36,927 nucleotides of DNA from Dehalococcoidia bacterium (GCA_023271215.1 JALPYG010000003.1:1-36927), one strand, 5' to 3'. Positions 13,201-30,228 are shown, counted from the first letter of the stretch. Program-made: numbers and translations. Notes: generated from the sequence alone by a model not told the origin.

Positions 13201-13416
13201 GGTGCTATAGAGCTTCATGATACACGACAAGGCAAAAAGGCCAGGGTTATTCCTGTTCTCTGTAAAGGAGATGGTCTCTGTAACGCAAAGTGTCCAACGG
13301 GGGCTATTTCACTAAAGCACTATACCGATGAAGAGGTCTTTCGCCAAATCGACGCCGCGGTTCCAGCCTTACGTGGAGAAGTCAGAAGTCAGAGAATAGA
13401 GAACAGAATCGTCTGA
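10288..13416 (+). CDS. bamE: HdrA-like electron-bifurcating FAD/Fe-S subunit of class II BCR
   Basis: Two GGGxxG FAD-binding modules, LDKTFPTNDCSMC, HCVGSR...YCSAVCC, VFVCHCG, NIREHCSWVH, C-terminal 2x[4Fe-4S]. Confidence 0.9.
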   Translation: MKKEPVEGQHFRIPADSNFGDVMVVGGGISGIQAALDLATAGYKVYLVEKSPTIGGKMAQLDKTFPTNDCSMCIESPKFIECDRHPNIEILTYTEVDGIEGEAGDFKVKLIKKPRYIIEGRCTGCTTCVEYCPVPAGDPFNQNLSNTKAVRIYFAQAIPLVTYIDPETCLYLEDGKCTICEGVCKNDAIDLHQTAEKVEVRVGAIVLSPGYEVFDPKLRGDYGYGKFENVVTSLDFERLLCASGPFEGEILRPSDMKHPHNIAWIHCVGSRRVTPGDNSYCSAVCCTYTQKQVILTKDHDAEARATIFHNDIRSYGKGFERFYQRAENLPGVRFIRSYVSIGKEIPESKNVTIRYSTTEEGVKEEEFDLVVLSVGMNPPADVEGLANTFGIELNSHGFLKTNPANPIETSRPGIFVSGAFQGPMDIPESVMTASGAASYCGQLLSCRRGKLSKERMYPPERDVSEEEPRVGVFVCHCGANIGRVVDVPSVVEYALTLDNVVHAQENLFSCSTDAAEQISNTIREKGLNRVVVAACTPRTHEPLFRDTLREGGINQYFFDMANIREHCSWVHSREKEDATEKAKDIVRMSVARTLSLQPLQEFDLPVSKTGLVVGGGLAGMTSALSLANQGFEVHLVEKDTDLGGMARRIHFTLEGLDVQAYLRDVIRKVYQHPLIHVSHDATITDVSGYVGNFITTVESEGRVKVIHHGATILATGADEYRPTEYLYGEGRVLTLLELEEQIARGEERLINSQSLVMIQCVGCREEDRNYCARVCCSQAIKNALKLREINPRMDIYILYRDMMTYGLSEDYYREASDKDVKFIRYEAHDKPQVEAVEEDGQSILRVTVTDPILGQTLAIDADSLALAAAVIPSAGSQEISRLFKVPLSPEGFFQEAHVKLRPVDFAADGVFLCGIAHYPKHISETISQAYGAAGRAVTILSKDSVIASGAICEVNESECVGCGACQSVCQYGAIELHDTRQGKKARVIPVLCKGDGLCNAKCPTGAISLKHYTDEEVFRQIDAAVPALRGEVRSQRIENRIV

Positions 13417-17361: not shown

Positions 17362-17387
17362 ACCTTCAACCTTGAACCTTGAACCTT
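17285..17387. repeat. Heptamer-palindrome element forming the bamI C-terminus
   Basis: GTAACTACCCGGG terminus, GGTTC-type arm and (GAACCTT)n arm running up to the next ATG. Confidence 0.8.
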
Positions 17388-20300
17388 ATGGAGACAAGAA
17401 CCGGAGTTTACATCTGCCACTGCGGGCTGAACATCGCCGCCACGGTAAATCCGGGGGAGGTAGCGGGAGATGCCGCATCCCTTCGTGACGTGGTGGTGGC
17501 CCGTGATTATATGTTCATGTGCTCTGATCCGGGGCAGGAGCTGATCATGAAGGATATCAAGGAGCAGGGCCTTAACCGGGTAGTGGTGGCCTCATGCTCG
17601 CCGATGCTCCATGAGCGCACCTTCCGCCGTGTCTGCCAGGAGGCGGGTTTGAACCCCTATCTCTTCAAGATGGCCAACATCCGCGAGCATTGCAGTTGGG
17701 TACATAAGGATGGGGCCACGGAGAAGGCGAAGGCACTTGTACGGGCGGCGGTACTGCGGGGGCATTATCAGGAACCTCTACAGACGATGGAAGTTCCCAT
17801 TAACCCGAACACGCTGGTTGTTGGTGGAGGCATTGCAGGGATACAGGCGGCCTTAGACATCGCCATTGCCGGTTATAAGGTCTACCTGGTGGAGCAGGAG
17901 CCCTCGATTGGGGGGCACATGATACAACTGGACAAGACCTTCCCCACGCTTGACTGCTCGGCGTGCATCACCACCCCTAAGATGAGCGATGCGGGCTCAC
18001 ACCCGAACATTGAGCTGCTGACCTACAGTGAGGTAACGGAGGTAGCGGGCTACATCGGCAATTTCACCGTCAAGATAAAGAGGAAATCGAGGTATGTCGA
18101 TGAGAGCAAGTGTAACGGGTGTGGCCTGTGTTTCGCGGGATGTCCGGTGGTGATGGGAAACGAGTTCGATCTGGGTCTGAGGGAGCGCAAGGCGATCTAC
18201 GTGCCCTTTCCGCAGGCGGTGCCCAACAAAGCGGTGATAGATAAGCGCGAGGAGCGACTCTGCAAGGCTGCCTGTGTGGATGCCTGCCCGATCTCGACCA
18301 ATGTACTGGGTTACATCAAGCTGATTGCTGAGGGGAAGTTTAAGGAATCATACGAGCTTATAAGGGCAACCAATCCGCTTCCGGCGGTTTGCGGCCGGAT
18401 TTGCTACGCCCCCTGCCAGGAGGCCTGCAACCGGGGGCAGATCGACGAGCATGTGGCTATTTGCGATCTCAAGAGATTTGCCACCGATCAGGTGGATATC
18501 GCTAAGCTTGAAGTCCCCCAAATCACGGCGACGGGCAAAAGGGTGGCGGTTATCGGATCGGGGCCTGCCGGGCTGGCGGCGGCCAATGACCTTGCCCTAG
18601 AGGGGCATGGAGTGACCGTCTTTGAAGCCCTGCCCGAACCCGGGGGCATGCTTCGCTATGCCATCCCGGAGTATCGTCTTCCCCGGGAGCTTCTTCGCCA
18701 GGAGATAGATTACATCCGCAGGCTGGGGGTGGAGATAAGAACGGGGGTTGAGGTGGGAAAGGACATCTCCCTTGCCGAGGTAAGAAATGAATACCAGGCG
18801 GTCTTCATCTCCGCCGGTGCACAGGGGGGGATGAGGTTAGGGGTGGAGGGAGAGGATCTCCCCGGGGTGATGGAGGGCATCAGGTTCCTTCGGGAGGTAA
18901 ACCTTTCCGAGTTTCGAGTTCCGAGTTCCGAGGTGGGGGGTGGGGACTCAGCACTCAGTACTCAGCACTCGGTACTCGGTCGGGTGGCGGTGATTGGGGG
19001 AGGCAATACGGCTGTTGACTGCGCTCGGACGGCCAGGCGCCTTGGAGGGGAGGAGGTGAGGATCATCTACCGTCGCTCCCGGGCCGAGATGCCGGCCTCA
19101 AGCGAAGAGGTAACTGCGGTGGAGGAGGAAGGGATAGGGATAGATTTTCTGACGGCACCGGTGCGATTTCTCTCTGAGGACGGGAGACTCACGGGGATAG
19201 AGTGCATCAGGATGAAGCTCGGGGAGCCGGATGCCAGTGGCCGGGCCCGTCCGGTCCCCATTGAGGGGTCGGAGTTCAGGATGGGTGTGGATACGGTGAT
19301 AGCTGCTCTGGGACAGGTGCCGGAGACCGGATTCGTCCGGGAACTCGGGATATCACTGGGGAAGACGGGCACGATAGCGATCGATGCCCGTACCGGGGCG
19401 ACGAGCATCGAAGGGGTATTTGCCGGGGGGGACGTGGTGACCGGACCTGCCTTTGCCATCGATGCCATCGCTGCGGGGAAGAGGGCGGCGCGTTCGATAG
19501 GCCGCTATCTGAATGGCGAGCCGATGGAGGTTGAGGAAGAGGAGGGTAAGCCGGAGAGGCTCTCCGAGGAGGAGGTCAAGTCATTAAAGGAACAGTTTCC
19601 AGCGGAGAAGCGGGTGGAGATGGGGGAGGAACCGGTAAAAGAGAGGGTTGCTGACTTCCGAGAGGTAGCCCTGGGGTATACTGAGTCGGAGGCAGTTGGG
19701 GAGGCTTCACGGTGTCTTGCAGGGCAGATAGAGGGATGTATCGAGTGCCGGGAGTGCGAGAGGCGGTGTGAGCCCGGAGCGATCAATTATGAGATGAAGG
19801 ATGAAACTATCCAGGTGGAGGTGGGGAGCATCATCCTGGCCACTGGTTACGATCAGTTCGATCCCTCGGGTATACCGGAATACGGGTATGGAAGGTATGA
19901 GAACGTTATCACCGGGTTGGAATTTGAGCGGCTCTCAAATGCTGCCGGGCCGACGGCGGGGCAGATACTGCTGAAGAATGGCCGGCCACCCCGGAGTGTA
20001 GCCATTATTCATTGTGTGGGCAGCCGGGATAAGAACTTTCACGAGTACTGTTCCCGGGTTTGCTGCATGTATGCTTTGAAATTTGCGCATCTGATCAGGG
20101 AGAAGACCGATGCCGAAGTATATCAACTGTACATTGACATGCGATGTTTTGGGGAGGGGTACGAGGAATTTTACGAGCGTGTGGGGACCGAGGACGGGGT
20201 GAACTTTATCCGGGGGAAGGCGTCGCGGGTAACCGACCAGGCTTTGAACGAGGAGGAGGAAGGGAAGCTCATCGTCTGCGTGGAAGATACGCTGCTGGGC

Positions 20301-20813
20301 AGTTTCATGCGGGTGCCGGTGGAGATGGTGATTCTTTGCACTGCGCTGGAGCCGAGGGCGAACACGGAGGAGATGGCCCGGCTCTTCTCCATCGGGCAGA
20401 GAGCGGATGGATTCTTCCTGGAGAGGCATGTCAAGCTTGCCCCAATAGCGACCACGACCGAGGGGCTGTTCGTTGCCGGGTGCTGCGAAGGCCCGCGGGA
20501 CATCCCGGACACGGTGGCTCAAGCTAAGGCGGCCGCTTCCGATGTGTTGAGTCTGCTGGCACGGGGCAAGGTGGAGATCGAGCCCATCGTTGCCTCGGTG
20601 GACGAGGAGATCTGCGCCGGCTGCGGTCTGTGTGAGAAGATATGCTCCTATAGTGCGCCCTCGATTGACAGGCTTCGGAGAGTGACGGTGGTCAATCAGG
20701 CTCTGTGTAAGGGTTGCGGTGCCTGTGCCGTCACCTGCCCTTCAGGGGCGATGAGCTTAAGCCATTTCACTCGTCGCCAGATACTGGAGGAAGTGGAGGC
20801 CTTGGTCTATTAG
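17388..20813 (+). CDS. HdrA-like flavoprotein with inserted GltD/NfnB-type NAD(P)H oxidoreductase module (HdrL-like)
   Basis: HdrA N-terminus (GVYICHCG, NIREHCSWVH, LDKTFPTLDCSAC), then CGRICYAPCQEACNR, GSGPAGL, GGGNTAVD...YRRS, FAGGD, then HdrA C-terminal half (HCVGSRD, YCSRVCC); ATG 17388. Confidence 0.88.
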   Translation: METRTGVYICHCGLNIAATVNPGEVAGDAASLRDVVVARDYMFMCSDPGQELIMKDIKEQGLNRVVVASCSPMLHERTFRRVCQEAGLNPYLFKMANIREHCSWVHKDGATEKAKALVRAAVLRGHYQEPLQTMEVPINPNTLVVGGGIAGIQAALDIAIAGYKVYLVEQEPSIGGHMIQLDKTFPTLDCSACITTPKMSDAGSHPNIELLTYSEVTEVAGYIGNFTVKIKRKSRYVDESKCNGCGLCFAGCPVVMGNEFDLGLRERKAIYVPFPQAVPNKAVIDKREERLCKAACVDACPISTNVLGYIKLIAEGKFKESYELIRATNPLPAVCGRICYAPCQEACNRGQIDEHVAICDLKRFATDQVDIAKLEVPQITATGKRVAVIGSGPAGLAAANDLALEGHGVTVFEALPEPGGMLRYAIPEYRLPRELLRQEIDYIRRLGVEIRTGVEVGKDISLAEVRNEYQAVFISAGAQGGMRLGVEGEDLPGVMEGIRFLREVNLSEFRVPSSEVGGGDSALSTQHSVLGRVAVIGGGNTAVDCARTARRLGGEEVRIIYRRSRAEMPASSEEVTAVEEEGIGIDFLTAPVRFLSEDGRLTGIECIRMKLGEPDASGRARPVPIEGSEFRMGVDTVIAALGQVPETGFVRELGISLGKTGTIAIDARTGATSIEGVFAGGDVVTGPAFAIDAIAAGKRAARSIGRYLNGEPMEVEEEEGKPERLSEEEVKSLKEQFPAEKRVEMGEEPVKERVADFREVALGYTESEAVGEASRCLAGQIEGCIECRECERRCEPGAINYEMKDETIQVEVGSIILATGYDQFDPSGIPEYGYGRYENVITGLEFERLSNAAGPTAGQILLKNGRPPRSVAIIHCVGSRDKNFHEYCSRVCCMYALKFAHLIREKTDAEVYQLYIDMRCFGEGYEEFYERVGTEDGVNFIRGKASRVTDQALNEEEEGKLIVCVEDTLLGSFMRVPVEMVILCTALEPRANTEEMARLFSIGQRADGFFLERHVKLAPIATTTEGLFVAGCCEGPRDIPDTVAQAKAAASDVLSLLARGKVEIEPIVASVDEEICAGCGLCEKICSYSAPSIDRLRRVTVVNQALCKGCGACAVTCPSGAMSLSHFTRRQILEEVEALVY
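18905..18978. repeat. Heptamer-palindrome element in frame within the HdrA/GltD fusion
   Basis: (CCGAGTT)n + GGTGGGGGGTGGGG + (ACTCAG(C/T))n; encodes SEFRVPSSEVGGGDSALSTQHSVL. Confidence 0.85.
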
Positions 20814-21374: not shown

Positions 21375-22145
21375 ATGGAGTATCGGGAAATAATCCTGCT
21401 GAAGCAGGGCGAAATGGCCAGGATCACCATCAACCGACCCCCGGTTAACGTGATGACCTTGAACACCATAGCCGAGCTGAACCAGGCACTAGGGGGATTG
21501 AGGGAAGATCCCGAGGTCAAGGTGGTGATCATCCGGGGAAGCGGGGAGCGGGCCTTCTCCGCTGGCGTGGAGGTGGCCGACCATCTGGGCGAGAAGTTGC
21601 CCCTGATGTTGGAGGAGTTTGGCCGGTTGTTCAAGTCGTTGAGGAACGTAGGCAAACCGGTCGTCGCCGTGGTAAATGGCATCGCTTTGGGCGGCGGCTG
21701 CGAACTGGTGGCCGGGTGCGATATGGCTATCGCCTCGGAGAAAGCTCAGTTCGGTCAGCCGGAGATAAAGCTGGGTGTGAACCCTCCGCCGGCAAGCGTG
21801 CTTTTCCCCAGGCTCATAGGGATGAAAAAGGCCCTGGAGTTGATCCTCACCGGCGATTCCATAGATGCGTGGGAGGCGCAGAGGATAGGTCTGGTGAACA
21901 AAGTGGTCCCTCACGAGGAACTGGACCAGGCTGCCGAGGAATTCGCCGGCCGGCTTCTGGAGAAGAGCGGGTACATACTGAAGTTGACCCGGGGGGCCAT
22001 CTACGAGGTTAGCGAGATAAGCGACTACGAGAAGGCCCTCGACCTTATGACCTACCGGTCGCGTAAGATCATGGAGTCTGAGGACGCCGTCGAGGGACTG
22101 ACCTCTTTCATCGAAAAGCGCAAGCCGGTCTGGAAAAACCGGTGA
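21375..22145 (+). CDS. Crotonase-family enoyl-CoA hydratase, probably cyclohexa-1,5-dienoyl-CoA hydratase (Dch/BamR-like)
   Basis: AFSAGVEVADH, ALGGGCEL, FGQPEIKLG, EGLTSFIEKRKP; SD AGGAGG; substrate inferred from operon context. Confidence 0.8.
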   Translation: MEYREIILLKQGEMARITINRPPVNVMTLNTIAELNQALGGLREDPEVKVVIIRGSGERAFSAGVEVADHLGEKLPLMLEEFGRLFKSLRNVGKPVVAVVNGIALGGGCELVAGCDMAIASEKAQFGQPEIKLGVNPPPASVLFPRLIGMKKALELILTGDSIDAWEAQRIGLVNKVVPHEELDQAAEEFAGRLLEKSGYILKLTRGAIYEVSEISDYEKALDLMTYRSRKIMESEDAVEGLTSFIEKRKPVWKNR

Positions 22146-23306
22146 TGGCAAGTATAATAGACGAACTGGAGCCCATCTTTAATCCCCGAAGCATCGCCGT
22201 GATAGGAGCCTCAGATAATCCCGCTAAGCTGGGCTATCACTGCATGAAGAGCCTGAAAGAGAGCGGGCTTCAGTCCATACATCCCATAAATCCGCGCTCT
22301 TCGGAGATCTGGGGATTTCCGGCCTATCCCTCGCTGAGAGAGGTACATCAGGAAATCGACCTGGCTATCGTGATTGTGCCGGCCTCTGCGGTTCCTTCAG
22401 CAATAGAGGACTGTGCCCGGAAGGGGATAAAGGGCATTGTCCTTATGACTGGCGGATTCAGGGAAGCGGAAGACCCGGCGAGGGCCGAGCTTCAGGATGA
22501 GATAGCTTCGCTGGCCGTCAAGAGTGGAATCAGGGTGATCGGCCCCAACACATTTGGATTTGTCAATCTCTCGGTCCATCTGAATGCCTCCTTTACCCCG
22601 GAATTCCTCGCCACCCGAAGGGGCAACATAAGCCTCATAAGTCAGAGCGGCGGGGTATGCCACCTTCTGTCCCCCTTGCTGATGGAATCGGAGAGGGTGA
22701 TAGGTTTCTCCAAGATTGTGGGCCTGGGCAACCGGTGCAATCTTGATTTTGCCGACGTGCTGGAGTACCTGGCGGTGGACCCGGAGACCAGGGTGATCCT
22801 GATGTATCTCGAGGGGATAGATGATGCTCGCAGGCTTATCGAGGTTGCCCGGCGAGTGGCGCCCCAAAAGCCCATAGTAGCCTTCAAGTCAGGAAAGACG
22901 ACCACTGCGGACAGAGCGGCTTATTCTCGTACCGGTTCCCTGGCTGGAAAGCACGAGGTCTATCTCGCCGCTTTCAGGCAGGCCGGCATCCTGTTAGCGA
23001 GCGATTTCGAGGAATTGCTGGATATCTGACCCGAACATTGATGCCCTCTTGTTTCTCTCTGCCTATGCCTCAGCCAACGAGCCCGTAATCAGAGCGCTCG
23101 CTGCAGTGTTGAAGGAGGAGATCGAGGCTCGCCGGAAGCCGATCCTCACCTGCTTCCCGGCACCGCTGGGAATCTGGGAGGAAAGGGTCGAGCTGGAGGA
23201 GAGCGGCATTCCGGTTTATGCTACGCCGGAGAGGGCGGCTAGATCTCTGGCAGGTTTGGTCTGCTACGGGGATATCCCGGCTTTGGCGCTATTCACGAAA
23301 ACTTGA
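22142..23306 (+). pseudogene. ADP-forming acyl-CoA ligase alpha subunit, disrupted
   Basis: SIAVIGAS, IGPNTFG, ISQSGG, YLEG; the phospho-His motif SHTGSLAG reads SRTGSLAG (CGT 22928-22930); stop at 23027-23029 jumps to DPNIDALLFL...IPVYATPERAA in another frame (internal deletion). Confidence 0.8.
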
Positions 23307-24372
23307 ACCTCCCATATTTTTCCACCATTTTTTGGTCAATGGAAGGTCCCGTCTTGTGGATAACCTCCGCTAAGTCTCTCATTTCCACATCCCTTGCAAT
23401 GCCGGTCTGGATATTCTCTCTAAAGGGGATCAGCGAGGCTTTAAGGCAGATCTGCCTTATGTCCGCGCCGCTACGACCCTCGGTCATCTGTGCCAGGTTG
23501 TCGAAATCAATATCCTCTGCCAGCGGCTTTCCCTGGAGATTCAATTCAAAAATCTTTTTCCTCGCCTGAGAATCAGGGGGAGGAACGTAGATAGTCTCGT
23601 CAAATCTTCCCGGTCTAAGGGCGGCATGGTCAATGCTCCATGGCTCGTTGGTCGCTCCGATGAAGAGGAGGTTCTCATTTTTCGACTCCATCCCCTCCAT
23701 CTCCGCCAAAATCTGAGGAACAACCCGTTGCATCACCGTAGACCCGGAATCCTTCCTCTTTGGAATCAGTGCTTCAACCTCGTCAATAAAAATCACCGCT
23801 CTCTTCTGATTCCTCGCCGAAGAAAACAGCTTCGCTATATTCTGCTCACTCTCCCCGACCCACTTGCTCATAATTTCGCTCGGCTTTATGCTGAAGAATA
23901 CCGCATCCACTTCATTGGCAACCGCCTTTGCGATGTAAGTCTTGCCTGTGCCAGGGGGACCGTAGAGCAAGATTCCTCCCCCGGATCCGATCCCAAACCT
24001 CTTCGCCTCTTCAGGATATAGAAAAGGATAGATTATCTTGTTCTTGATCTCCTCTTTTATATTCTCCAGTCCTGCCACGTCGTCGAAGGTTACGGCAGGT
24101 CGTTCCTGCAAGATGAATTCTGCACCTTCTCCCCTTCCCGCAGCAGCCTCCTTTTCCTTAAGAGTGATAGACTTTGCCTTCTCCAGGAGTTTCTGGGCGT
24201 TTTCAACCCTTATCAACTTCACCCTCCCCTGCGATTCGGAAGACGCATTAAAGAGTTGTCTGCTCGCCTGCAGGTAATAGTCTCTGGCTTTTCGCAACTC
24301 GCTTTGCGCTTCCGCCTTCATTGCCTCGGCGATACATTCTTCGGCTTTTTGAAGAAATACGTCAATGCTCAT
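23293..24372 (-). CDS. Vps4/CdvC-like AAA+ ATPase with N-terminal MIT-like domain
   Basis: ~70-aa helical N-terminus (AEECIAEAMKAEAQSELRKARDYYLQAS), single AAA module: VTFDDVAGL, GPPGTGKT, SKWVGESE, IFIDEVE, GATNEPW, C-terminal GPSIDQKMVEKY helix. Confidence 0.8.
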   Translation of the reverse strand: MSIDVFLQKAEECIAEAMKAEAQSELRKARDYYLQASRQLFNASSESQGRVKLIRVENAQKLLEKAKSITLKEKEAAAGRGEGAEFILQERPAVTFDDVAGLENIKEEIKNKIIYPFLYPEEAKRFGIGSGGGILLYGPPGTGKTYIAKAVANEVDAVFFSIKPSEIMSKWVGESEQNIAKLFSSARNQKRAVIFIDEVEALIPKRKDSGSTVMQRVVPQILAEMEGMESKNENLLFIGATNEPWSIDHAALRPGRFDETIYVPPPDSQARKKIFELNLQGKPLAEDIDFDNLAQMTEGRSGADIRQICLKASLIPFRENIQTGIARDVEMRDLAEVIHKTGPSIDQKMVEKYGRFKFS

Positions 24373-24375
24373 CGC

Positions 24376-24975
24376 CTACCCCTTCCGCATCATGTCCTCG
24401 ACTTCCTTGATACCCCTGGAAATCCTCTCATCCAGGCCCTTTTCCTCAGTCTCTACCTCCCCTTCCATCGTTTTTACAATTTCGTTAATGTCTCTATCAG
24501 AGAAACCTTCGGCACTCAAGATACCCTCGCTGGCCATGTCTAAAGTAGTGGACAACGCCTCGTCGATGCCCTCTGCCTGTGCCATCGCCTTCTCAAACTC
24601 CACCTGCATGCCGGCGATCTTTTCTACATCTGGGCCTTCGGTAATGGACTCGCTTATGTCCTTAGCAAAGGTTACAAAATCCCCGGAGATCTTGACCATC
24701 TCCCGTTGAAGTCTGGCCTCGTCCATCAGCAGGAGCATCCGCTGTCCCTTTCTTATCCGTTCCTGCAAGACCAGATATTTGGCAGCCTGCCTCTTCAAAA
24801 ACTTCTCTTCATTTAGTCTAGCTGCCTGCCTTCCCTGATCGTATATCGTCTTTTGCAGGTCCATCAGCTTCGAGATGTAGCCTTTAACCCTTGCTTTCGC
24901 CTTCCTGTACCTTATCTCCCTCTCGATCTCCTTCTCTTCCCTTGATTTTCCCTTCAACTTTTTCAATATGCCCAT
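24376..24975 (-). CDS. ESCRT-III/Snf7-superfamily-like protein (Vps2/Did2/CdvB type)
   Basis: 199 aa, predicted all-helical, basic N-half and acidic C-half, amphipathic MGILKKLKG start, DVEKIAGMQVEFEKAMAQAEGIDEALSTTLD, MIM1-like end LDERISRGIKEVEDMMRKG; SD AAGGAG; ends 3 bp before the ATPase start. Confidence 0.7.
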   Translation of the reverse strand: MGILKKLKGKSREEKEIEREIRYRKAKARVKGYISKLMDLQKTIYDQGRQAARLNEEKFLKRQAAKYLVLQERIRKGQRMLLLMDEARLQREMVKISGDFVTFAKDISESITEGPDVEKIAGMQVEFEKAMAQAEGIDEALSTTLDMASEGILSAEGFSDRDINEIVKTMEGEVETEEKGLDERISRGIKEVEDMMRKG

Positions 24976-24994
24976 TCTTTCACTCCTTTACGAG

Positions 24995-25123
24995 GTTCCA
25001 GGTTGACGGGTTTACGGTTCACGGTTCACGGTTCTGCATAGTCTAGAGTCTAGAGTCTAGAGTCTAGAGTTCCCCGCTCCACCCCTACCTTCAACCTTCA
25101 GCCTTCAGCCTATCCACCTGAGT
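24995..25123. repeat. Composite heptamer arrays (GGTTCAC)n, (TAGAGTC)4, C-rich core, (CCTTCA(G/A))n
   Basis: Directly visible; the right part encodes the PP2C tail ATQVDRLKAEG and its stop; CTACTCAGG terminus on the minus strand. Confidence 0.8.
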
Positions 25124-25828
25124 AGCCAGGATTACAGTTATATTGTCCCTTCCGTTCGTTTCTTTCGCAGAGTTTATGAGCTTCTCGCAGGCTTCATCGA
25201 GGTCTTTTGAACTTATTATAATTCGCCTTATTTCTTCACCCCGTAAGGAATCTGTCAAGCCATCAGAGCACAACAACAGATATTGACCACAAATCCGGAT
25301 CTCGTAGAGGTCAGGTTTTATATCGGCATCCGTTCCCATCACCCTGGTAATGATATTCTTTTCCGGATGATCAAACGCCTCCTCTTCTGAGATAATACCT
25401 CTATCCACCAGTTCTTGAACGAAGGAATGGTCCTTGGTCTGCTGCTTTATCTCCTCTCCTATCAGATAAGCCCTGCTGTCGCCTATATTTGCGATCACAC
25501 ATCTTTCTTCTTCAATCAAGGCAGCCACCAGCGTTGTGCCCATATTACTATAGTCTGGATTTTCCCGGGCTAAACTGTATATCTCCCTATTTGTCTTCTC
25601 AAAAGCCTGCTGAAGCAGCATCCTGAAGTCAGTAATCCCCTCGCTAAATCCTTTGTTCACCGCCTCTTCTAGCTCTATCACTGCCAGCCCACTGGCAATC
25701 TCGCCGGCGCTGTGCCCGCCCAGACCGTCGGCAACGGCAAGGAGGTAAATGTCGCCGAAGCGCGTTACCGCAAGGCTATCCTCGTTATTTGCTCTCTTCC
25801 CGCTGTCAGTAAGAGATGCTATCTTCAT
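25091..25828 (-). CDS. PP2C/PrpC-type Ser/Thr protein phosphatase
   Basis: GKRANNED, AVADGLGGH, MGTT, ANIGDSRAY, TKDHS, LLCSDGL, GRDNITV. Confidence 0.92.
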   Translation of the reverse strand: MKIASLTDSGKRANNEDSLAVTRFGDIYLLAVADGLGGHSAGEIASGLAVIELEEAVNKGFSEGITDFRMLLQQAFEKTNREIYSLARENPDYSNMGTTLVAALIEEERCVIANIGDSRAYLIGEEIKQQTKDHSFVQELVDRGIISEEEAFDHPEKNIITRVMGTDADIKPDLYEIRICGQYLLLCSDGLTDSLRGEEIRRIIISSKDLDEACEKLINSAKETNGRDNITVILATQVDRLKAEG

Positions 25829-26157
25829 CCTTCTGTCCTCGCTTTGCGGATAATTCTATCCATATCGTCTAATCTACGGGGATCTAATGTTACATCACGC
25901 TCAACGCAATAGTTAAGGGCGGCGATTTTACGGTCGATCAAATCCTGTGTCTCACTGGATTTCACCTGGGTTTTTAAGGAATTCAGGTAATCGATACATT
26001 TGTTCAGCGCACTCAAGCGCGTCTCGCGACGTTCCGAGCTGCTATATGCCTGTCGTAAGAGCATATCCGACATCTCGCAATAGACCGTTATTCTCTCCAG
26101 TCGATCTATGGTTATCTTCACCTTTTGTTTGTGTTCTATTTCCAGAACGTCTGCCAA
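25825..26157 (-). CDS. Helical hypothetical protein, possibly the 3' remnant of a larger gene
   Basis: Stop overlaps the PP2C start (ATGA); TTG start with no SD, immediately after a truncated toxin gene. Confidence 0.5.
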   Translation of the reverse strand: MADVLEIEHKQKVKITIDRLERITVYCEMSDMLLRQAYSSSERRETRLSALNKCIDYLNSLKTQVKSSETQDLIDRKIAALNYCVERDVTLDPRRLDDMDRIIRKARTEG

Positions 26158-26162
26158 GTGAT

Positions 26163-26369
26163 TTAAGTTTCGTGGAGACGATAGAAATCAGCAACATTGA
26201 AGCTAAAGAGGGCCCGCCCGAGCGCCGTTGCGTAATCCAGGTGGGCCTGGTCACTTCGCTCAATCATATTCTCCTCCAGAGCTGTGGTCACATTTACACC
26301 ACGCGCTCGCAATGAGCGAACCAGGTCCTGATCCATCGCATCTTCGTCGATGTACAAATGAATTGTCAT
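26163..26369 (-). pseudogene. DUF5615/VapC45-like PIN toxin, truncated at 68 aa
   Basis: LYIDED...LRARGVNV...SDQAHLDYA...GRALFSFNVADF; coupled (ATGA) to the DUF433 gene; lacks the C-terminal part. Confidence 0.7.
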
Positions 26370-26674
26370 GAATCGTCTTGAACGAAGCGAATATGCCCCC
26401 GTTCGAGTGTTTTGGCCTCAGCTTCTTCAACAGCAATGTCGTATTCGACCTCTTCCCGGTTGGCATGGTAATAAGCCAGGGCAGCATATACTTGTGCCAG
26501 TGACAGGTGTCCGGTACGGTTTGCGATCTCCTCAGGGCTCAACCCCAGTTTGTACCACCCCACAACGCGCTGGACCGTGACACCGGTTCCAGCGATCCGT
26601 GGCCGTCCCCCGCGCACCTCCGGCGTTTGAACGATAAGCTCTCCTATGTCGGTCACCTTTGGCATTGTCATCAC
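26366..26674 (-). CDS. DUF433-family antitoxin
   Basis: TPEVRGGRPRIAGTGVTV, GLSPEEIA, LSLAQVYAALAYY; SD GGAGG. Confidence 0.88.
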   Translation of the reverse strand: MMTMPKVTDIGELIVQTPEVRGGRPRIAGTGVTVQRVVGWYKLGLSPEEIANRTGHLSLAQVYAALAYYHANREEVEYDIAVEEAEAKTLERGHIRFVQDDS

Positions 26675-26791
26675 ACCCTCCGCTTAAGAATCCTTCATCT
26701 GGTTCCAACGCTCCCTGTCGTGTCCGTGGCCCGTGTCCGGAAGTCCCCCTTCCTTCAGCCTAATCCCCTTCAGTCTAACCTACCTGAGTAG

Positions 26792-27043
26792 TTACCCGAT
26801 TTGTTTCTCAATCCCTCTCTCCCAAATGTGCTTTGCCTCTTCAATGCTCTCATCACTGATTCTAGCATCCTTCCAGATTCCACGTAGAGAAATCACCTCC
26901 CCCTCCGGCGGGGTTTTCTGGGGCTCCCCATGAAGGATTTGCATTCTTACTCGCTCGTTCTCTCTTAAGTCAACTTTGTCCAGAAGTTTGATCACCCCTT
27001 TTTGATAGACGCCCTCTATGACCTGGGGTCGAGTAGAAGTCAT
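26792..27043 (-). CDS. AF2212/DUF104-like antitoxin-family protein
   Basis: VIEGVYQKGVIKLLDKVDLRENERVRM; SD AGGAGG; stop TAA supplied by a GTAACTACTCAGG element terminus (26783-26795). Confidence 0.7.
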   Translation of the reverse strand: MTSTRPQVIEGVYQKGVIKLLDKVDLRENERVRMQILHGEPQKTPPEGEVISLRGIWKDARISDESIEEAKHIWERGIEKQIG

Positions 27044-27099
27044 CTCAACCTCCTTTCAGTAAGCATCCTCAGCCGAATGAGCATGCTCAAATGCGAATA

Positions 27100-27156
27100 A
27101 CCTGTCTCGAAGATTTTGACTTGTGTTTGTCAGTCCGTAGGAATTATCCATTTCAC
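27100..27156 (-). pseudogene. HicA-like toxin remnant
   Basis: GTG 27156 directly after the hicB-like stop: VKWIIPTD*QTQVKIFE, resembling HicA N-termini; TGA at 27130-27132. Confidence 0.45.
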
Positions 27157-27157
27157 A

Positions 27158-27436
27158 CTACACTCTCGACAGATTCACAAAAGACTTGTCAAAGCTAATA
27201 ATCTCTCTTTTAGATCCCGTCACGCCTCCCTCCAGGTCATAACCCGCTTCCAATAAGAATTCCTCCAGTGTGCCTAGCTCTTTCATTTCTTCAAATTGGA
27301 TCTCAATGACTTCAAGGAGATTCTGCCTCGCTTCCTCTAGAGAGTTCCCCTGAGCCACCATGTCTAATTCGGGAGAGCGAGCTATATAGAGATTACCCTC
27401 TCTCCAAAACTCTATGGTTGTCTTTAAGGCATTCAT
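27158..27436 (-). CDS. HicB-like antitoxin
   Basis: FWREGNLYIARSPELDMVAQGNSLEEARQNLLEVI fold signature. Confidence 0.8.
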   Translation of the reverse strand: MNALKTTIEFWREGNLYIARSPELDMVAQGNSLEEARQNLLEVIEIQFEEMKELGTLEEFLLEAGYDLEGGVTGSKREIISFDKSFVNLSRV

Positions 27437-27466
27437 TTTTCCTTTCCCCCTTATTCTTGCTTTTCA

Positions 27467-27649
27467 GTAACGAGTCAGGTTGCCAGGCCTGGCCCCGGCC
27501 GCAGGGCGAGGGGCTCACGATTCCAGGTTCACGGCTCAGGGTTCTACCTTCAGGGTTCAGGCTTCACGCTTAACAGGTCACACATCACAGATCATGCTAT
27601 TCGCTACACGCTAACTGTGAACCCCGGAACTTTGAACCTGAGTCGTCAC
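27467..27649. mobile_element. 183-bp MITE-like element with 13-bp terminal IRs enclosing heptamer arms
   Basis: GTAACGAGTCAGG (27467-27479) vs CCTGAGTCGTCAC (27637-27649), 11/13; internal (GG(T/C)TCA(C/G))n and GAAC-type arms. Confidence 0.7.
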
Positions 27650-27810
27650 CTTTATTCTAAATCTTTTTGCAAAGAACTATAGTTGAATCCCTCCTTAGTT
27701 CTTCGTGGATAACAGTTACTGCTTTACAACATCCTTTCACCTCGATAACAAGATTTTATCCTCTTGCCGGATCTTCTCAATCTAACGGTCGTCTTGGGCT
27801 CTCCCTTTGC

Positions 27811-28047
27811 TTATTCGTAACCGCCTCTTCGTGAGATTCTTTCAACAGGATTACAGGACTGGCAACATTCTTGTAAGCATTCATCTGAAAACGGACAGTT
27901 AACAGGTGACGGCTGAACACTCACATAGGTAGAGGTGTGGATAATCACCAGGGGGGCAACATGCGGGAGCTTTTGCGGGCAACCCTGTTTCTCAAGGAGT
28001 CGCCGCCAGAAGAAGCTCTTTGCCTGGCAGTCAAGCACTTCTTTCAT
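27811..28047 (-). CDS. Possible small Cys-rich protein
   Basis: ATG with GGAG SD downstream of a sigma70-like promoter; CPFSDECLQECCQSC; no family recognised. Confidence 0.3.
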   Translation of the reverse strand: MKEVLDCQAKSFFWRRLLEKQGCPQKLPHVAPLVIIHTSTYVSVQPSPVNCPFSDECLQECCQSCNPVERISRRGGYE

Positions 28048-28164
28048 TGGGCTTGCTCCACCGATGGCCGCTTACAGGCTCAATTATCGGGCCAGGGGCC
28101 GTACCTGTGATTTAGCATTGTCAGGACGTGGCCCCATCAGTTTCATCTGTCTGGTTTGGTTTCT

Positions 28165-28194
28165 ATTATATACTGAACGACTATTGATAGGCAA
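28165..28194 (-). promoter_or_regulatory. Sigma70 promoter facing the TA/ESCRT block
   Basis: Minus strand TTGCCT (28194-28189), 18 bp, TATAAT (28170-28165). Confidence 0.55.
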
Positions 28195-28253
28195 GATCAT
28201 TCCGAACGTACCTCCGAAACCTGATAAGGGAAAGGACTTTAGTGCGAGATCCC

Positions 28254-28424
28254 ATTGATGCTGCGCTGAGGGATGTGTGAAGCAGGCTCTCCCCGCTCTA
28301 CGAGGCGCTGGAAACACGAAAGCTTGACCTGGACGACCAGACTCCCAGAATCAAGCAACTAAGAGGTCGCCAAGATGAACTGCGGCGGGCACGGAATCAA
28401 ACAGATGGGGAGATGGCGGCGGAG
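28254..28424 (+). pseudogene. Fragment of a large serine recombinase coiled-coil region
   Basis: Hand translation IDAALRDV*SRLSPLYEALETRKLDLDDQTPRIKQLRGRQDELRRAR resembles the RLxxLYxALExGxLxLxDLxPRIxxL segment of large serine recombinases; not in the ORF track. Confidence 0.55.
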
Positions 28425-28443
28425 CTCCTTTTCCTTTCCCTGC

Positions 28444-29820
28444 TCATACTATATCCGGAGGTATGAATCCCCGGGAGACAAAGTCACGCTCCCAGGCGGC
28501 ATCCAACACCCTGGCTACCTCCGCCGAGTATCTGTCCAATTCACCACAGAGGGTGGTGACCAGTGTCTCGGCACCCTCGTGAGTAGGGTAGGGGCGAAAC
28601 TCAGCGCAAACCTCCCGAAGCACATGGGGGTGATCGATAATCATGCATGGGCGCAAGAGGTTACCACTGTTGTATATATGTAGCTGGCGGGATCTGATTC
28701 CCCTGAAGTAAGGCGAGTTAAGAATTTCTTTCAAACTTTTCTGCTTGACATTGTCGGTTGCTAGATGGGCAAAAATACAGGGCTCTACATCGCCGTGTGA
28801 GTTGATGTGAAAGAAGTGGCGACCAGCGGCGATACAGCCACCAACAAAGGGGGCGTCGTTCCAGAAGTCGAAAACCAGGATTGGCTTCTCCTCGCGGATG
28901 CGCTGAGCCCCCCGTAGTCTCATCAACTCTCGCTGCTCGGCGGTGGGCATTAAGCTGACATTGGGGTCAATCCCTGAGGGCATATAGAGAAAATGCCAGC
29001 CAAAGAGGCAACCTTTCTCAATGAGCATGTCGTTAAATTCATCGCTGATAATGGTCTCCACATTCTGGGAGGTAACCATTACGGAATACCCAAATATTAC
29101 CCCTGCCTCCCGCAGGTTATCCATTCCCTGCATTACCTTCTGGAAGACTCCCCTGCCCCGCCGGGCATCTGTTTCCTCCTCAAAGCCCTCCAGGCTGAAG
29201 ATGATAATCACGTTGCCCAGCTCCGCCAGCTTCCCGGCCACCTCTTTGTTGACGAGAGTCCCGTTGGTATAAATGTGAAATGTAATGTCGCTATGACGCC
29301 GGTAAATGTCCCACAGGTCTGGCCGGATGAACGGCTCGCCACCCAGAATAGTCACAAAGAAGATTCCCAGATCCTTCCCTTCTGTCAACACCTGGTCGAT
29401 GACCTCAGTCTCCAGGTCGTCCTTCATACTGTAATTAGCGGCATAGCAACCAGCACAGCGCAGGTTACAGCGCATGGTGGGGCTAATGAGAAAGGTGTTA
29501 GGAATAGACAAGCCTTCCTTTTTTCTTATCTCCTCACGCCTCACGCTCCCGTACCAGTGGTTTCTAATCACAAAACTGTCCATCACTCTCTCCCTCACGT
29601 GAGGGTTTGCCTGACGAACAAATCTCCGGAAGAACTCGATGGTGGGGTGCTGCTTGTGGCACAACTCCTCTAGCGAGCTAAGTATAGATCTGGAGAATTC
29701 GGTGGGAGCGAACTTTCCCGCTACCCTGAGGACTTTCTCCAAATCCTTATCCGACATCCTGCTCACCAAAGGGAGCATCCGCTTCGCTGCCTGCCTGACG
29801 GCGAACTCTTTTAGGGCCAT
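28444..29820 (-). CDS. Radical SAM protein with SPASM/twitch domain, substrate unknown
   Basis: CNLRCAGCY, LGGEPF, YTNGTL, GGCIAAGR...GDVEPC, RPCMIID; SD GGAGGAG. Confidence 0.88.
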   Translation of the reverse strand: MALKEFAVRQAAKRMLPLVSRMSDKDLEKVLRVAGKFAPTEFSRSILSSLEELCHKQHPTIEFFRRFVRQANPHVRERVMDSFVIRNHWYGSVRREEIRKKEGLSIPNTFLISPTMRCNLRCAGCYAANYSMKDDLETEVIDQVLTEGKDLGIFFVTILGGEPFIRPDLWDIYRRHSDITFHIYTNGTLVNKEVAGKLAELGNVIIIFSLEGFEEETDARRGRGVFQKVMQGMDNLREAGVIFGYSVMVTSQNVETIISDEFNDMLIEKGCLFGWHFLYMPSGIDPNVSLMPTAEQRELMRLRGAQRIREEKPILVFDFWNDAPFVGGCIAAGRHFFHINSHGDVEPCIFAHLATDNVKQKSLKEILNSPYFRGIRSRQLHIYNSGNLLRPCMIIDHPHVLREVCAEFRPYPTHEGAETLVTTLCGELDRYSAEVARVLDAAWERDFVSRGFIPPDIV

Positions 29821-29879
29821 TTTCTCCTCCGTTTAGTTTTGATTTCCCCTTCGACCTGCTGCATGGTGGGATGTCTAAG

Positions 29880-29951
29880 TGGCAGCGGAGGGATTCGAAC
29901 CCCCGACCAGAGGCTTATGAGTCCCCTGCTCTACCGCTGAGCTACGCTGCC
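29880..29951 (-). tRNA. tRNA with CAT anticodon (elongator Met or Ile2)
   Basis: GGCAGCGTAGCTCAGCGGTAGAGCAGGGGACTCATAAGCCTCTGGTCGGGGGTTCGAATCCCTCCGCTGCCA; G1-C72 paired so not initiator; CCA not encoded. Confidence 0.93.
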
Positions 29952-29961
29952 ACACGCTAAG

Positions 29962-29990
29962 AATATAGCACCTTACAACTCGGCTGTCAC
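29962..29990 (-). promoter_or_regulatory. Promoter of tRNA(CAT)
   Basis: Minus strand GTGACA, 17 bp, TATATT with extended TG. Confidence 0.55.
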
Positions 29991-30032
29991 GCCGCCGCCC
30001 AGGGGTCGCACTTTACATAACATTAGCGCTCT

Positions 30033-30062
30033 TTGATTTTGGAGGACGGGCTGTGGTAGTAT
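30033..30062 (+). promoter_or_regulatory. Promoter of tRNA-Pro/mfd
   Basis: TTGATT, 18 bp, TAGTAT with extended TG. Confidence 0.45.
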
Positions 30063-30080
30063 AGTAATTGTCCAGCACGT

Positions 30081-30154
30081 CGGGGTGTGGCGCAGCCTGG
30101 TAGCGCACCTGCATGGGGTGCAGGGGGTCGGAGGTTCAAATCCTCTCACCCCGA
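30081..30154 (+). tRNA. tRNA-Pro(GGG)
   Basis: CGGGGTG acceptor stem, CCTGC-ATGGGGT-GCAGG anticodon arm, GGTTCAAATCC T-arm; CCA not encoded. Confidence 0.95.
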
Positions 30155-30228
30155 TTTTCGTTGGAAATACTGTTGTCTTCTAAAACAGGGCTACTCGCTT
30201 GCGACTAGCCCTTTTGGTGTGAGCAAAG

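Follow-up and report, generated by a model that had tools for sequence, protein, structure and literature searches.

An ESCRT-III-like protein paired with a Vps4-like AAA ATPase in a Dehalococcoidia chromosome

Introduction

Does any bacterial chromosome encode an ESCRT-III protein together with a Vps4-type ATPase? The accessible text of two reviews grants bacteria no part of the ESCRT-III superfamily beyond PspA/Vipp1 and no clear Vps4 homologue (PMC7615534, PMC7619361), and the accessible part of the main comparative survey reports ESCRT components in archaea "but not in bacteria" (PMC10936438). The question is raised by a 36,927-bp contig of a Dehalococcoidia bacterium (GCA_023271215.1, JALPYG010000003.1; contig C74), the whole of which was analysed and is called the window here. 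It belongs to a genome assembly, G000, of 150 contigs and 1.58 Mb. On the minus strand of the window a gene for a charged 199-residue protein is followed at once by a gene for a 359-residue AAA ATPase, and an earlier note, written from the sequence alone, had read the two as a minimal ESCRT-like machine. We have examined both proteins, the genomic setting of their genes and the distribution of related loci by computational means.

Results

The 199-residue protein and the ESCRT-III family

Four open reading frames (ORFs) stand in a row on the minus strand: a 110-residue frame, a PP2C-type phosphatase, the 199-residue protein and the ATPase (Table 1). The last two were found exactly as the earlier note described them, parted by a spacer of 3 nucleotides (stop codon of the 199-residue protein ending at 24376, ATG of the ATPase at 24372). 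A Shine-Dalgarno site, AAAGGAGTG, lies upstream of the ATG of the 199-residue protein. Every sequence string quoted in the note is also present: LDERISRGIKEV near the C terminus of the 199-residue protein, DVEKIAGMQVEFEKAM...EALSTTLD in the same protein, and SKWVGESE and ATNEPW in the ATPase.

The charge of the 199-residue protein is sharply divided, with a net +14 over residues 1-100 (pI 10.3) and -15 over residues 101-199 (pI 4.2). A basic N-half followed by an acidic C-half is a hallmark of the ESCRT-III family. The most amphipathic 11-residue segments fall at residues 182-197, giving the C-terminal helix the highest hydrophobic moment, so the polarity and terminal amphipathic helix proposed in the note are borne out by calculation. 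The helix, with the consensus LDxxIxxGLxxIE, is kept across an alignment of 94 family sequences and, in the comparison of the family profile with the PDB, aligns with the C-terminal tail of Vps24. It seems to resemble the MIM1 consensus and may, as a candidate MIM-like site, dock the MIT-like domain of the ATPase.

The protein has 67 close homologues, and its family comprises 284 clusters at 50% identity (E ≤ 0.001). The Pfam Snf7 model (PF03357) aligns with it colinearly, residues 29-178 against positions 12-157 of 171, at E = 0.1 and 12.7 bits. Snf7 was matched by 18 of 28 close relatives (E ≤ 1) and by 32 of 94 diverse relatives at E ≤ 0.01, while any other Pfam family was matched by at most one of the 94. 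A broad profile built from the 94 sequences (A2) returned 29 matches in the PDB, the best being Vps24 (6zh3_B, E = 8.7e-7, residues 11-195 against 17-220). Further matches were to CHMP3 (1.8e-5), CHMP2A (3.8e-5), CdvB (9s9j, 7.9e-5), CHMP1B (8.7e-4), CdvB2 (0.009) and Snf7 (0.03). ESCRT-III chains made up 13 of the 29 matches and eight of the top nine, and no PspA or Vipp1 chain was among the 29. The PspA_IM30 model (PF04012) did not match the 199-residue protein and is absent from the families listed for its 28 or 94 relatives. Taken together, the profile matches support a place for the protein on the ESCRT-III (Snf7/CHMP) side of the superfamily and not on the PspA side, as the note had suggested.

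A paralogue elsewhere in the genome, on contig C107, reached the Snf7 cut-off in a six-frame search (27.5 bits), and in the same search none of 14 control genomes passed it, Sulfolobus acidocaldarius among them. CdvB is a Sulfolobus protein, and the Pfam Snf7 model therefore seems insensitive to prokaryotic members. In the ESM Atlas the model of a 71%-identical homologue, P0010 (pLDDT 0.67), had a Snf7-labelled cluster as its best named neighbor (TM 0.56/0.52) and gave TM 0.47/0.38 against PspA; both values lie below the bar of the tool, and the comparison serves as a lead only. The nearest feature-space clusters of P0010 (score 0.96) mostly carry Bacteria labels, Planctomycetota and Chloroflexota being the most frequent. 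This family of Snf7-like proteins may thus reach further into Bacteria than the genome scans could show.

Architecture of the ATPase

The ATPase has a single AAA domain (residues 134-264) with Walker A GPPGTGKT (138), Walker B VIFIDE (193), an SKWVGESE pore loop (K170-E174), ATNEPW (240-245) and RPGR (253). An alignment of 16 homologues shows no variation in GPPGTGKT, VIFIDE, KWVGE or RPGR, and the Pfam AAA and AAA_lid_3 models match at 2.2e-43 and 1.7e-11. The helical N-domain of about 70 residues noted earlier corresponds to the Pfam MIT alignment over residues 7-69. Taken alone, this domain matches Pfam MIT at E = 4.2e-4 and 20.8 bits (cut-off 30), as do 13 of 15 homologous N-domains at E ≤ 1 (best 1.6e-5). 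A profile of the N-domains found as its best PDB match a 74-residue chain of chitin synthase 1 (2mpk, E = 0.001), which we take to be an MIT domain, followed by calpain-7 and VPS4B MIT at E of about 1-2 (VPS4B MIT 1.3-2.3). A homologue search with residues 1-95 only returned the ATPase itself as the sole match.

At the other end of the protein the Pfam Vps4_C model matches at E = 0.02 and 15.3 bits (cut-off 21.3), and it is matched by 15 of 16 homologues at E ≤ 0.1 (best 2.7e-7). The D2 domain of p97 aligns through this Vps4_C-like helix too, so the helix is not exclusive to Vps4. The NCBIfam CdvC model (NF041006) aligns end to end, over residues 17-355, with 256.7 bits. The CDC48 model (TIGR01243) scores 265.2 bits through its D2 part, and p97 D2 scored 223.7 bits in the PDB search; the best 60 PDB matches of an ATPase-family profile were all two-domain Cdc48/p97-type proteins or a p97 D2 fragment.

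In a tree rooted on the FtsH-like protein of the genome, with Methanoperedens PAN and Cdc48 D1/D2 as references, all 24 ATPases from ESCRT-type loci formed one group (support 90/84), sister to Cdc48 and apart from Cdc48 D1/D2, PAN and FtsH. The clade takes in the ATPase of a Thermococcus plasmid locus. It divides into three well-supported sub-branches, and the window ATPase falls in the one whose members are placed directly downstream of the ESCRT-III gene. Architecture and context thus support calling the ATPase Vps4-like. The MIT and Vps4_C parts of the earlier Vps4 assignment are seen as matches across the family, each below the curated cut-off for the window protein. 

A 6.6-kb island in a bacterial chromosome

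The ESCRT module resides in a Dehalococcoidia chromosome, in a 6.6-kb island beside a tRNA-Met gene. The 16S gene of the genome scores 1511 bits with the bacterial model and 1005 with the archaeal one. Among 95 contigs only one lies nearer to the tetranucleotide centroid than the window, which carries Mfd (1005 bits, cut-off 800), PaaX, IlvE and NuoF-like genes and bacterial tRNAs. Near-identical proteins and loci are labelled "Dehalococcoidia bacterium".

The congeneric genome G002 (97% complete) has no homologue of the 199-residue protein, and it reveals the site of insertion. The flanks of the window align with it at 82-90% nucleotide identity, the enoyl-CoA hydratase and CoA-binding genes at 87-90% (the latter at 87-88% with contig C20 of G002). 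There the tRNA-Met gene follows about 160 bp after the CoA-binding gene, where the window has 6.6 kb (23277-29878) between the two. Two more assemblies of the genus share these junctions, with 95-98% identity. Logan contigs from runs of two studies span the junction between the CoA-binding and ATPase genes (run X1, 23232-23622; run X3, 23056-23622), and one of the two runs may be the source of the window.

The heptamer repeats of the PP2C/ESCRT-III spacer turn up again on at least 10 other contigs of the genome, and other strains lack 135-142 bp at this place (joints 24982>25125, runs X1 and X3). Intergenic tandem arrays of (TCTAGAG)n and (ACGGTTC)n (plus strand), together with a 48-nucleotide element, are found on at least 10 contigs, including the 16S contig C2. 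In the window the arrays lie at 24976-25090 and 27560-27700, where public-run contigs show length variants.

No direct repeats marking an integrase att site were found at the island ends, no integrase gene was seen among the island ORFs, and Rfam found two tRNAs and nothing else over 23000-30300. Toxin-antitoxin-like genes form three pairs or halves of pairs in the island. At 26792-27043 and 27158-27436 there are antitoxin-like genes (AF2212-like, and UPF0150/HicB-like below cut-off) with no obvious toxin partner of at least 60 residues.

A kinase, phosphatase, ESCRT-III and Vps4 module

We surveyed 38 loci with a homologue of the 199-residue protein, counting named Dehalococcoidia records and their unnamed equivalents once. 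In 20 of the 38 the ESCRT-III homologue is followed after no more than 40 bp by the start of a Vps4-like gene, and in 4 more such a gene lies 0.3-3.6 kb downstream. Another 4 have only a different ESCRT-type AAA gene nearby, 5 have no AAA gene in at least 1 kb of downstream sequence, and 5 are too short to tell. The pairing is thus conserved in other genomes beyond chance.

A PP2C gene is present in 16 of the 38 loci and a Hanks-type kinase gene in 15. The PP2C gene usually lies directly upstream of the ESCRT-III gene; that of the window scores 263.4 bits with the NCBIfam Stp1/IreP model (cut-off 230), and archaeal-labelled copies are 51-56% identical to it. In the nearest relatives the gene order is membrane protein(s), a kinase of 730-790 residues, PP2C, ESCRT-III and ATPase. 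The full set of kinase, PP2C, ESCRT-III and Vps4 genes is found in the sister loci L011, L019, L013, L022 and L027 and in the system on contig C107. A close ESCRT-III/ATPase pair (≤40 bp) with no kinase or PP2C gene in the available stretch is found in 8 of 38 loci (L016, L020, L021, L023, L024, L026, L035 and L036).

The short frame upstream of the window PP2C is what is left of the kinase. Positions 26163-25828 match the last 113 residues (639-751) of the 751-residue L011 kinase at 87.6% (tblastn), and the Pkinase domain of the intact L011 protein lies at 393-640. Relative to L011, 3.15 kb has been exchanged in the window for a 0.64-kb DUF5615/DUF433 cassette (blastn breakpoints 26163/26164 and 26805/26806; Pfam DUF5615 1.5e-7, DUF433 5.1e-19). 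The lost DNA encoded a 393-residue protein and the first 638 residues of the kinase, the catalytic domain included. The Logan contigs listed do not span 26164 and 26795, and in run X1 the cassette forms a separate 632-bp contig, so the evidence for the truncation in this strain is the window assembly. Read against its sister loci, the window pair is a cut-down copy of the four-part module in which the kinase was replaced by a toxin-antitoxin cassette. The "minimal" machine of the earlier note is in these terms a truncated one.

The three remaining genes are under purifying selection. The ratio of nonsynonymous to synonymous substitution (dN/dS) for PP2C, ESCRT-III and ATPase is 0.16-0.23 against the 95-97%-identical metagenome copy L019 and 0.05-0.23 against the sister copies in general, the closest comparisons resting on few substitutions. 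For the kinase remnant the comparison with L011 and L012 is not interpretable, an indel having shifted the ungapped alignment out of register.

Two candidate parts of the module were rejected. A coiled-coil protein of 175-199 residues ("E3b"), encoded upstream in some loci, was considered as a second ESCRT-III protein but reached 8% probability against the ESCRT-III family in hhalign. An MIT-like domain in the N-region of the kinase gave 6% with the ATPase N-domains, despite a weak Pfam MIT match (E = 0.021).

Other features of related loci were recorded. Proteins encoded upstream of the kinase share a C-terminal tail (..ILEMIDEVVN.G-like; L011 3-1433 and 1741-2922, L013 1-621 and 3740-4213, L014 2681-3004) and may be clients or adaptors of the ESCRT system. 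One protein encoded upstream of the kinase, of 476 residues, contains four DUF4398 stretches and an NRBF2_MIT match (30.3 bits, cut-off 29.2). In locus L015 (1164-2891, from a record titled Methanoperedens) one protein combines an ESCRT-locus AAA ATPase with a diadenylate cyclase domain of the DisA type (DAC, E = 1.9e-21), which hints at a tie between an ESCRT-type system and c-di-AMP signalling; Chloroflexota relatives of this ATPase in G044 and G039 have 403 and 412 residues against 575 and are too short for the DAC part. In L027 (5604-7772, a metagenome contig) the gene after the ESCRT-III homologue encodes a 722-residue protein with two AAA cassettes, the Vps4-like type followed by that of the second sub-branch.

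A second system in the same genome and the distribution of the family

Contig C107 of the host genome carries a second, fuller ESCRT-type system at about 21.7-29.3 kb (locus L046, 2404-12247). Its genes encode, in order, a kinase of 1202 residues, a coiled-coil protein of 193 residues, an AAA protein of 387 residues (Vps4_C E = 1.1e-5), an ESCRT-III-like protein (35% identical to that of the window), a Vps4-like ATPase (53%), a 77-residue DUF433-like ORF, a kinase of 498 residues and a PP2C. FtsZ is encoded on the same contig (413 bits). A DUF433/DUF5615 cassette adjoins the kinase gene in both systems (window 26163-26674; L046 9810-11526). On C107 a DUF5615-like N terminus (residues 8-46) is fused to a kinase without some 270 N-terminal residues. 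The two cassettes share no DNA similarity, and their DUF433 proteins are 36% identical.

The two ESCRT-III proteins of the genome have different affinities. In the ESCRT-III tree the copies of seven Chloroflexota genomes (the C107 copy of G000, and G001, G039, G044, G099, G435 and G725) form one clade on a long stem (SH-aLRT 100). The window copy and L019 sit among Hydrothermarchaeales-, Methanoperedens- and Halobacteriota-labelled and unlabelled metagenome sequences, and the nearest labelled relatives outside the genus are 75% (Hydrothermarchaeales), 68% (Halobacteriota) and 64% (Methanoperedens) identical. The family was found in 6 of 61 genomes of the nearest relatives, 2 of 401 of the class, 3 of 401 of the phylum (Chloroflexota) and 16 of 301 (4 strong) of the phylum of a Methanoperedens genome; the phage collection contained no homologue. 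Since the nearest labelled relatives are archaeal and the literature gives such systems a wide archaeal distribution, an archaeal source is the more economical reading for the island copy, and its acquisition from archaea is likely.

An 83-kb contig titled Methanoperedens (C44 of G780; loci L016, L083 and L084) also holds an ESCRT-III/Vps4 pair. NCBIfam recognized among ten neighbors of this locus only a family-B DNA polymerase and TnpB, and the archaeal origin of the contig is judged from the record title and the polymerase gene. It might be an extrachromosomal element rather than a chromosome.

In the host genome itself no PspA gene was found over cut-off.

Layout of the window

The coordinates of the module and of its boundaries are collected in Table 1.

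Table 1. Features of the ESCRT-type locus and its borders in the 36,927-bp window
Feature	Coordinates	Strand	Basis or remark
ESCRT-III-like (Snf7/CHMP family) protein, 199 residues	24376..24975	-	ORF and family-profile matches
C-terminal helix of the 199-residue protein, residues 178-197, GLDERISRGIKEVEDMMRK	24385..24444	-	Candidate MIM-like docking site for MIT
Vps4-like AAA ATPase, 359 residues: MIT-like N-domain, one AAA cassette, C-terminal helix	23293..24372	-	
MIT-like three-helix N-domain of the ATPase, residues 7-69	24166..24354	-	Pfam MIT alignment
Vps4_C-like C-terminal helix of the ATPase, residues 326-356	23305..23397	-	Pfam Vps4_C
PP2C/ESCRT-III intergenic spacer: Shine-Dalgarno AAAGGAGTG and heptamer tandem repeats	24976..25090	-	
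PP2C-type Ser/Thr phosphatase, 245 residues	25091..25828	-	NCBIfam Stp1/IreP
Ser/Thr kinase remnant (110-residue ORF), C-terminal ~110-residue helical domain only	25825..26157	-	tblastn against the L011 kinase
DUF5615/DUF433 toxin-antitoxin-like pair	26163..26674	-	Pfam
tRNA-Met, right-hand boundary of the 6.6-kb insertion	29879..29951	-	ARAGORN; Rfam tRNA 66.6 bits
CoA-binding gene, left-hand island flank	22142..23306	+	Convergent with the ATPase gene, 14-bp overlap at its end

The CoA-binding gene is broken at 23025/23026 into ORFs of 295 and 85 residues; relative to the intact genes of G002 and G004, which encode 466-472 residues, 254 bp are missing, and the break is either a pseudogene or an assembly error. 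At its left end the window contains IS4- and IS701-family transposase genes; it also encodes two very large HdrA-like fusion proteins (1042 and 1144 residues) with NuoF-like and HdrC/TfrB-like neighbors (regions 504-1712, 2268-3302, 10288-13416 and 17379-20813).

Discussion

Proposed function

We consider it probable that the 199-residue protein and the ATPase form the core of an ESCRT machine of the euryarchaeal kind, in which a polymer would be remodelled at the expense of ATP. The basic N-half of the 199-residue protein would bind the inner face of the cytoplasmic membrane and the protein would polymerise there; the terminal amphipathic helix of its acidic C-half would recruit the MIT-like domain of a hexameric ATPase. 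The ATPase would thread subunits through its central pore, with KWVGE as the pore loop, remodelling or dismantling the polymer, and this would drive deformation, scission or repair of the membrane. In intact copies the PP2C and the kinase of 730-790 residues may set assembly or cargo choice through phosphorylation. With its own kinase cut to the last ~110 residues, the window copy would rely on the kinases of the C107 system or run unregulated.

Vesicle formation, membrane repair or sorting, under phosphorylation control, would be suitable roles for such a machine. It is probably not the main divisome, because FtsZ was found in 24 of 26 genomes of the lineage. None of five lineage genomes, four of them 96-99% complete, has MurG or MurC above cut-off; the envelope may thus be archaeon-like, and outward ESCRT budding or scission would then be physically plausible. 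An accessory role, in defence or for a mobile element, would also agree with the toxin-antitoxin island, the plasmid location in Thermococcus and the patchy spread. PADLOC lends such a role no specific support.

A broader proposition joins these points: that Bacteria possess a working ESCRT-III/Vps4 machine for scission or budding, acting in Dehalococcoidia on an archaeon-like single membrane under Ser/Thr-phosphorylation control, and that, beside the recent island copy, a Chloroflexota clade with two AAA ATPases has been evolving within the phylum. We put this forward tentatively, as less likely than not.

Evidence against and rival explanations

A number of observations weigh against an ESCRT-III/Vps4 assignment or limit what can be built on it. 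The 199-residue protein is well under the Pfam Snf7 cut-off (12.7 against 27.3 bits); used alone in a phmmer search of the PDB it had no match at E ≤ 10, and a narrow family profile (A1) had CdvB as its sole PDB match, at E = 3.2. The MIT and Vps4_C scores of the ATPase are both below the curated cut-offs, and the CdvC equivalog cut-off of 650 bits is missed widely, so the protein was not filed as CdvC. Among the matches listed for the ATPase-family profile, none to a solved Vps4 chain beats that to the p97 D2 fragment (271 bits), and the AAA cassette is for this reason nearer to Cdc48 D2 in sequence; the references of the ATPase tree, moreover, include neither canonical Vps4 nor CdvC. The kinase of the window copy is destroyed, possibly a sign of decay. 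The host assembly is 68% complete with 2.3% contamination. The contigs of an RNA library (X13) over 23273-24030 and 25125-25782 belong to a ~97%-identical relative and do not show transcription. Finally, the family is patchy in both domains (3/401 Chloroflexota genomes, 16/301 in the phylum of Methanoperedens), so a donor cannot be named.

The similarity of the cassette to Cdc48/p97 D2 invites the idea of a different function, in which a Cdc48-like unfoldase works on a coiled-coil adaptor or substrate in kinase-controlled quality control, or in an anti-phage or mobile-element role, with no membrane remodelling; on this view the likeness to Snf7 would come only from a common helical coiled-coil character and from remote ancestry. 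The patchy distribution, the toxin-antitoxin island, the plasmid location in Thermococcus and generic PADLOC matches (IetA, 117 bits; PD-T4-6 kinases) are all compatible with it. The PADLOC matches, however, are at the level of domains and score below CdvC and Cdc48, and none involves the 199-residue protein. The colinear, near-full-length profile match to Vps24, CHMP3, CHMP2A and CdvB is specific to ESCRT-III and not one to generic coiled coils, and an MIT-like N-domain opposite a conserved C-terminal helix fits the logic of ESCRT docking. We regard an unfoldase without membrane action as distinctly unlikely. There is also little reason to favor, but some to consider, a window copy that is a decaying remnant whose PP2C, ESCRT-III and ATPase ceased to be a working system once the kinase and the upstream membrane protein were lost. 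Relative to L011 the kinase catalytic domain and the 393-residue neighbor are indeed missing, the adjacent CoA-binding gene has its own 254-bp deletion, G002 lives without the module, and the island holds three toxin-antitoxin-like pairs or halves. Against decay, all three ORFs are intact with dN/dS of 0.05-0.23 to the sister copies, few substitutions underlying the closest comparisons; the Shine-Dalgarno site and the 3-nucleotide coupling are retained; the genome has another system, equipped with two kinases; and a close pair with no kinase or PP2C gene in the available stretch occurs in 8/38 loci. Decay therefore seems to us an improbable account of the locus.

That the block is archaeal DNA, mis-binned or chimerically assembled into a bacterial genome, would explain its archaeal-labelled relatives (Hydrothermarchaeales 75%, Halobacteriota 68%, Methanoperedens 64%) and the GC content of the island, 0.47-0.49 in places against a genome mean of 0.528; the fragmented, incomplete and slightly contaminated assembly might also raise the suspicion. 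The block lies in mid-contig, however, on 36.9 kb shared with Mfd, PaaX, IlvE and bacterial tRNAs, and both flanks have orthologues at 82-90% in the 97%-complete genome of the same genus. Its junctions recur at 95-98% in two further assemblies of the genus, and runs from two studies yielded short contigs that contain them. In composition the contig is central, and host-typical heptamer repeats stand between the PP2C and ESCRT-III genes. Mis-binning or chimerism is very unlikely and already largely refuted, and the bacterial location asserted in the earlier note holds on the strength of the 16S gene, Mfd, synteny with G002 and the bridging Logan contigs.

Bacterial chromosomes hold pairs of a Snf7-type protein and a Vps4-like ATPase, with a kinase and phosphatase layer, in two guises: the island copy, whose near relatives carry archaeal labels, and a clade confined to Chloroflexota. 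If functional, they would extend ESCRT-III/Vps4 membrane biology into Bacteria, would be a natural instance of a membrane-remodelling machine passing between domains, here to a lineage without detected murein pathway genes, and would offer small, simple proteins for work in vitro. They also bear on the use of the ESCRT-III/Vps4 pairing as an archaeal-eukaryotic signature.

Comparison with known systems

Among prokaryotic relatives, PspA and Vipp1 belong to the same superfamily and form helical polymers on membranes (PMC8281802). The window protein differs from them in having no PspA_IM30 match and in its partner, an AAA ATPase with an MIT-like domain and not PspF. According to the available text of Ravi et al. 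2024, Vps4-like ATPases passed from archaea to bacteria, where a TPR-6TM gene took the place of snf7, and bacterial Snf7/PspA-clade proteins adjoin two-domain AAA+ ATPases (PMC11237479). Unlike those TPR-6TM loci, the window retains a Snf7-type gene and has it together with PP2C and kinase sequences. The sequence of the AAA cassette is most similar to Cdc48/p97 D2, but the protein has one cassette and an MIT-like N-domain where Cdc48 has a double-psi-barrel, and it is separate from Methanoperedens Cdc48 D1/D2 in the tree.

The resemblance to the eukaryotic machinery lies in the best solved-structure matches (Vps24/CHMP3, Vps2/CHMP2 and CHMP1, with Vps4 as the partner), in the basic and acidic halves and in a C-terminal helix at the MIM position. 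Identity is very low, however, the island has one ESCRT-III paralogue and no ESCRT-I/II, and regulation appears to be by phosphorylation and not by ubiquitin. With CdvB/CdvC of the TACK archaea the locus shares a Snf7-family protein beside an AAA ATPase, here with an MIT-like domain, along the full length of which the CdvC model aligns, but the ATPase is under the equivalog cut-off (256.7 against 650) and 199 residues leave no room for the C-terminal winged-helix domain described for CdvB (PMC10936438), a domain for which no model was run.

The closest counterparts are euryarchaeal. The earlier note had confined the pairing of ESCRT-III with Vps4 to eukaryotes and TACK/Asgard archaea, a limit that must be widened: the accessible text of Makarova 2024 describes euryarchaeal "Main clade" loci with Vps4 and ESCRT-III, many of them with a Ser/Thr kinase and phosphatase, the kinase ending in a small helical PCI-like domain, and its authors infer a sorting of phosphorylated proteins (PMC10936438). 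An example from a cultured organism is the complete Thermococcus peptonophilus plasmid NZ_CP014751, with genes in the order kinase, AAA, PP2C and Snf7-like; its AAA protein is over the Vps4_C cut-off (35.8 bits) and its Snf7-like protein is 45% identical to that of the window. The bacterial loci resemble this type in combining an ESCRT-III homologue, a Vps4-type AAA ATPase, a Hanks-type kinase and a PP2C at one locus, in a kinase that ends in a small helical domain and in a host that also has FtsZ. In the near relatives the N-region of the kinase is long and helical, whereas the same source describes a transmembrane-plus-Ig arrangement. That source also names arCOG09748 and arCOG08177 as signature partners of the "Main clade" systems (PMC10936438); Pfam models, as opposed to models of those two arCOGs, found nothing at E ≤ 0.01 in the Thermococcus and bacterial neighbor genes.

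We found no report of a bacterial Snf7 and MIT-Vps4 pair, with or without kinase and PP2C, in the literature searched, whose supplements (Table S2 of PMC10936438; Table S3 and Text S2.2 of PMC11237479) may list such loci. The type of system is already known from Euryarchaeota, and its bacterial member is new. The window copy departs from the euryarchaeal "Main clade" in its bacterial host, identified by 16S, Mfd and synteny with same-genus genomes, and in having its kinase as a remnant only; and it departs from the Thermococcus plasmid in that the ATPase beside its ESCRT-III gene belongs to a different sub-branch.

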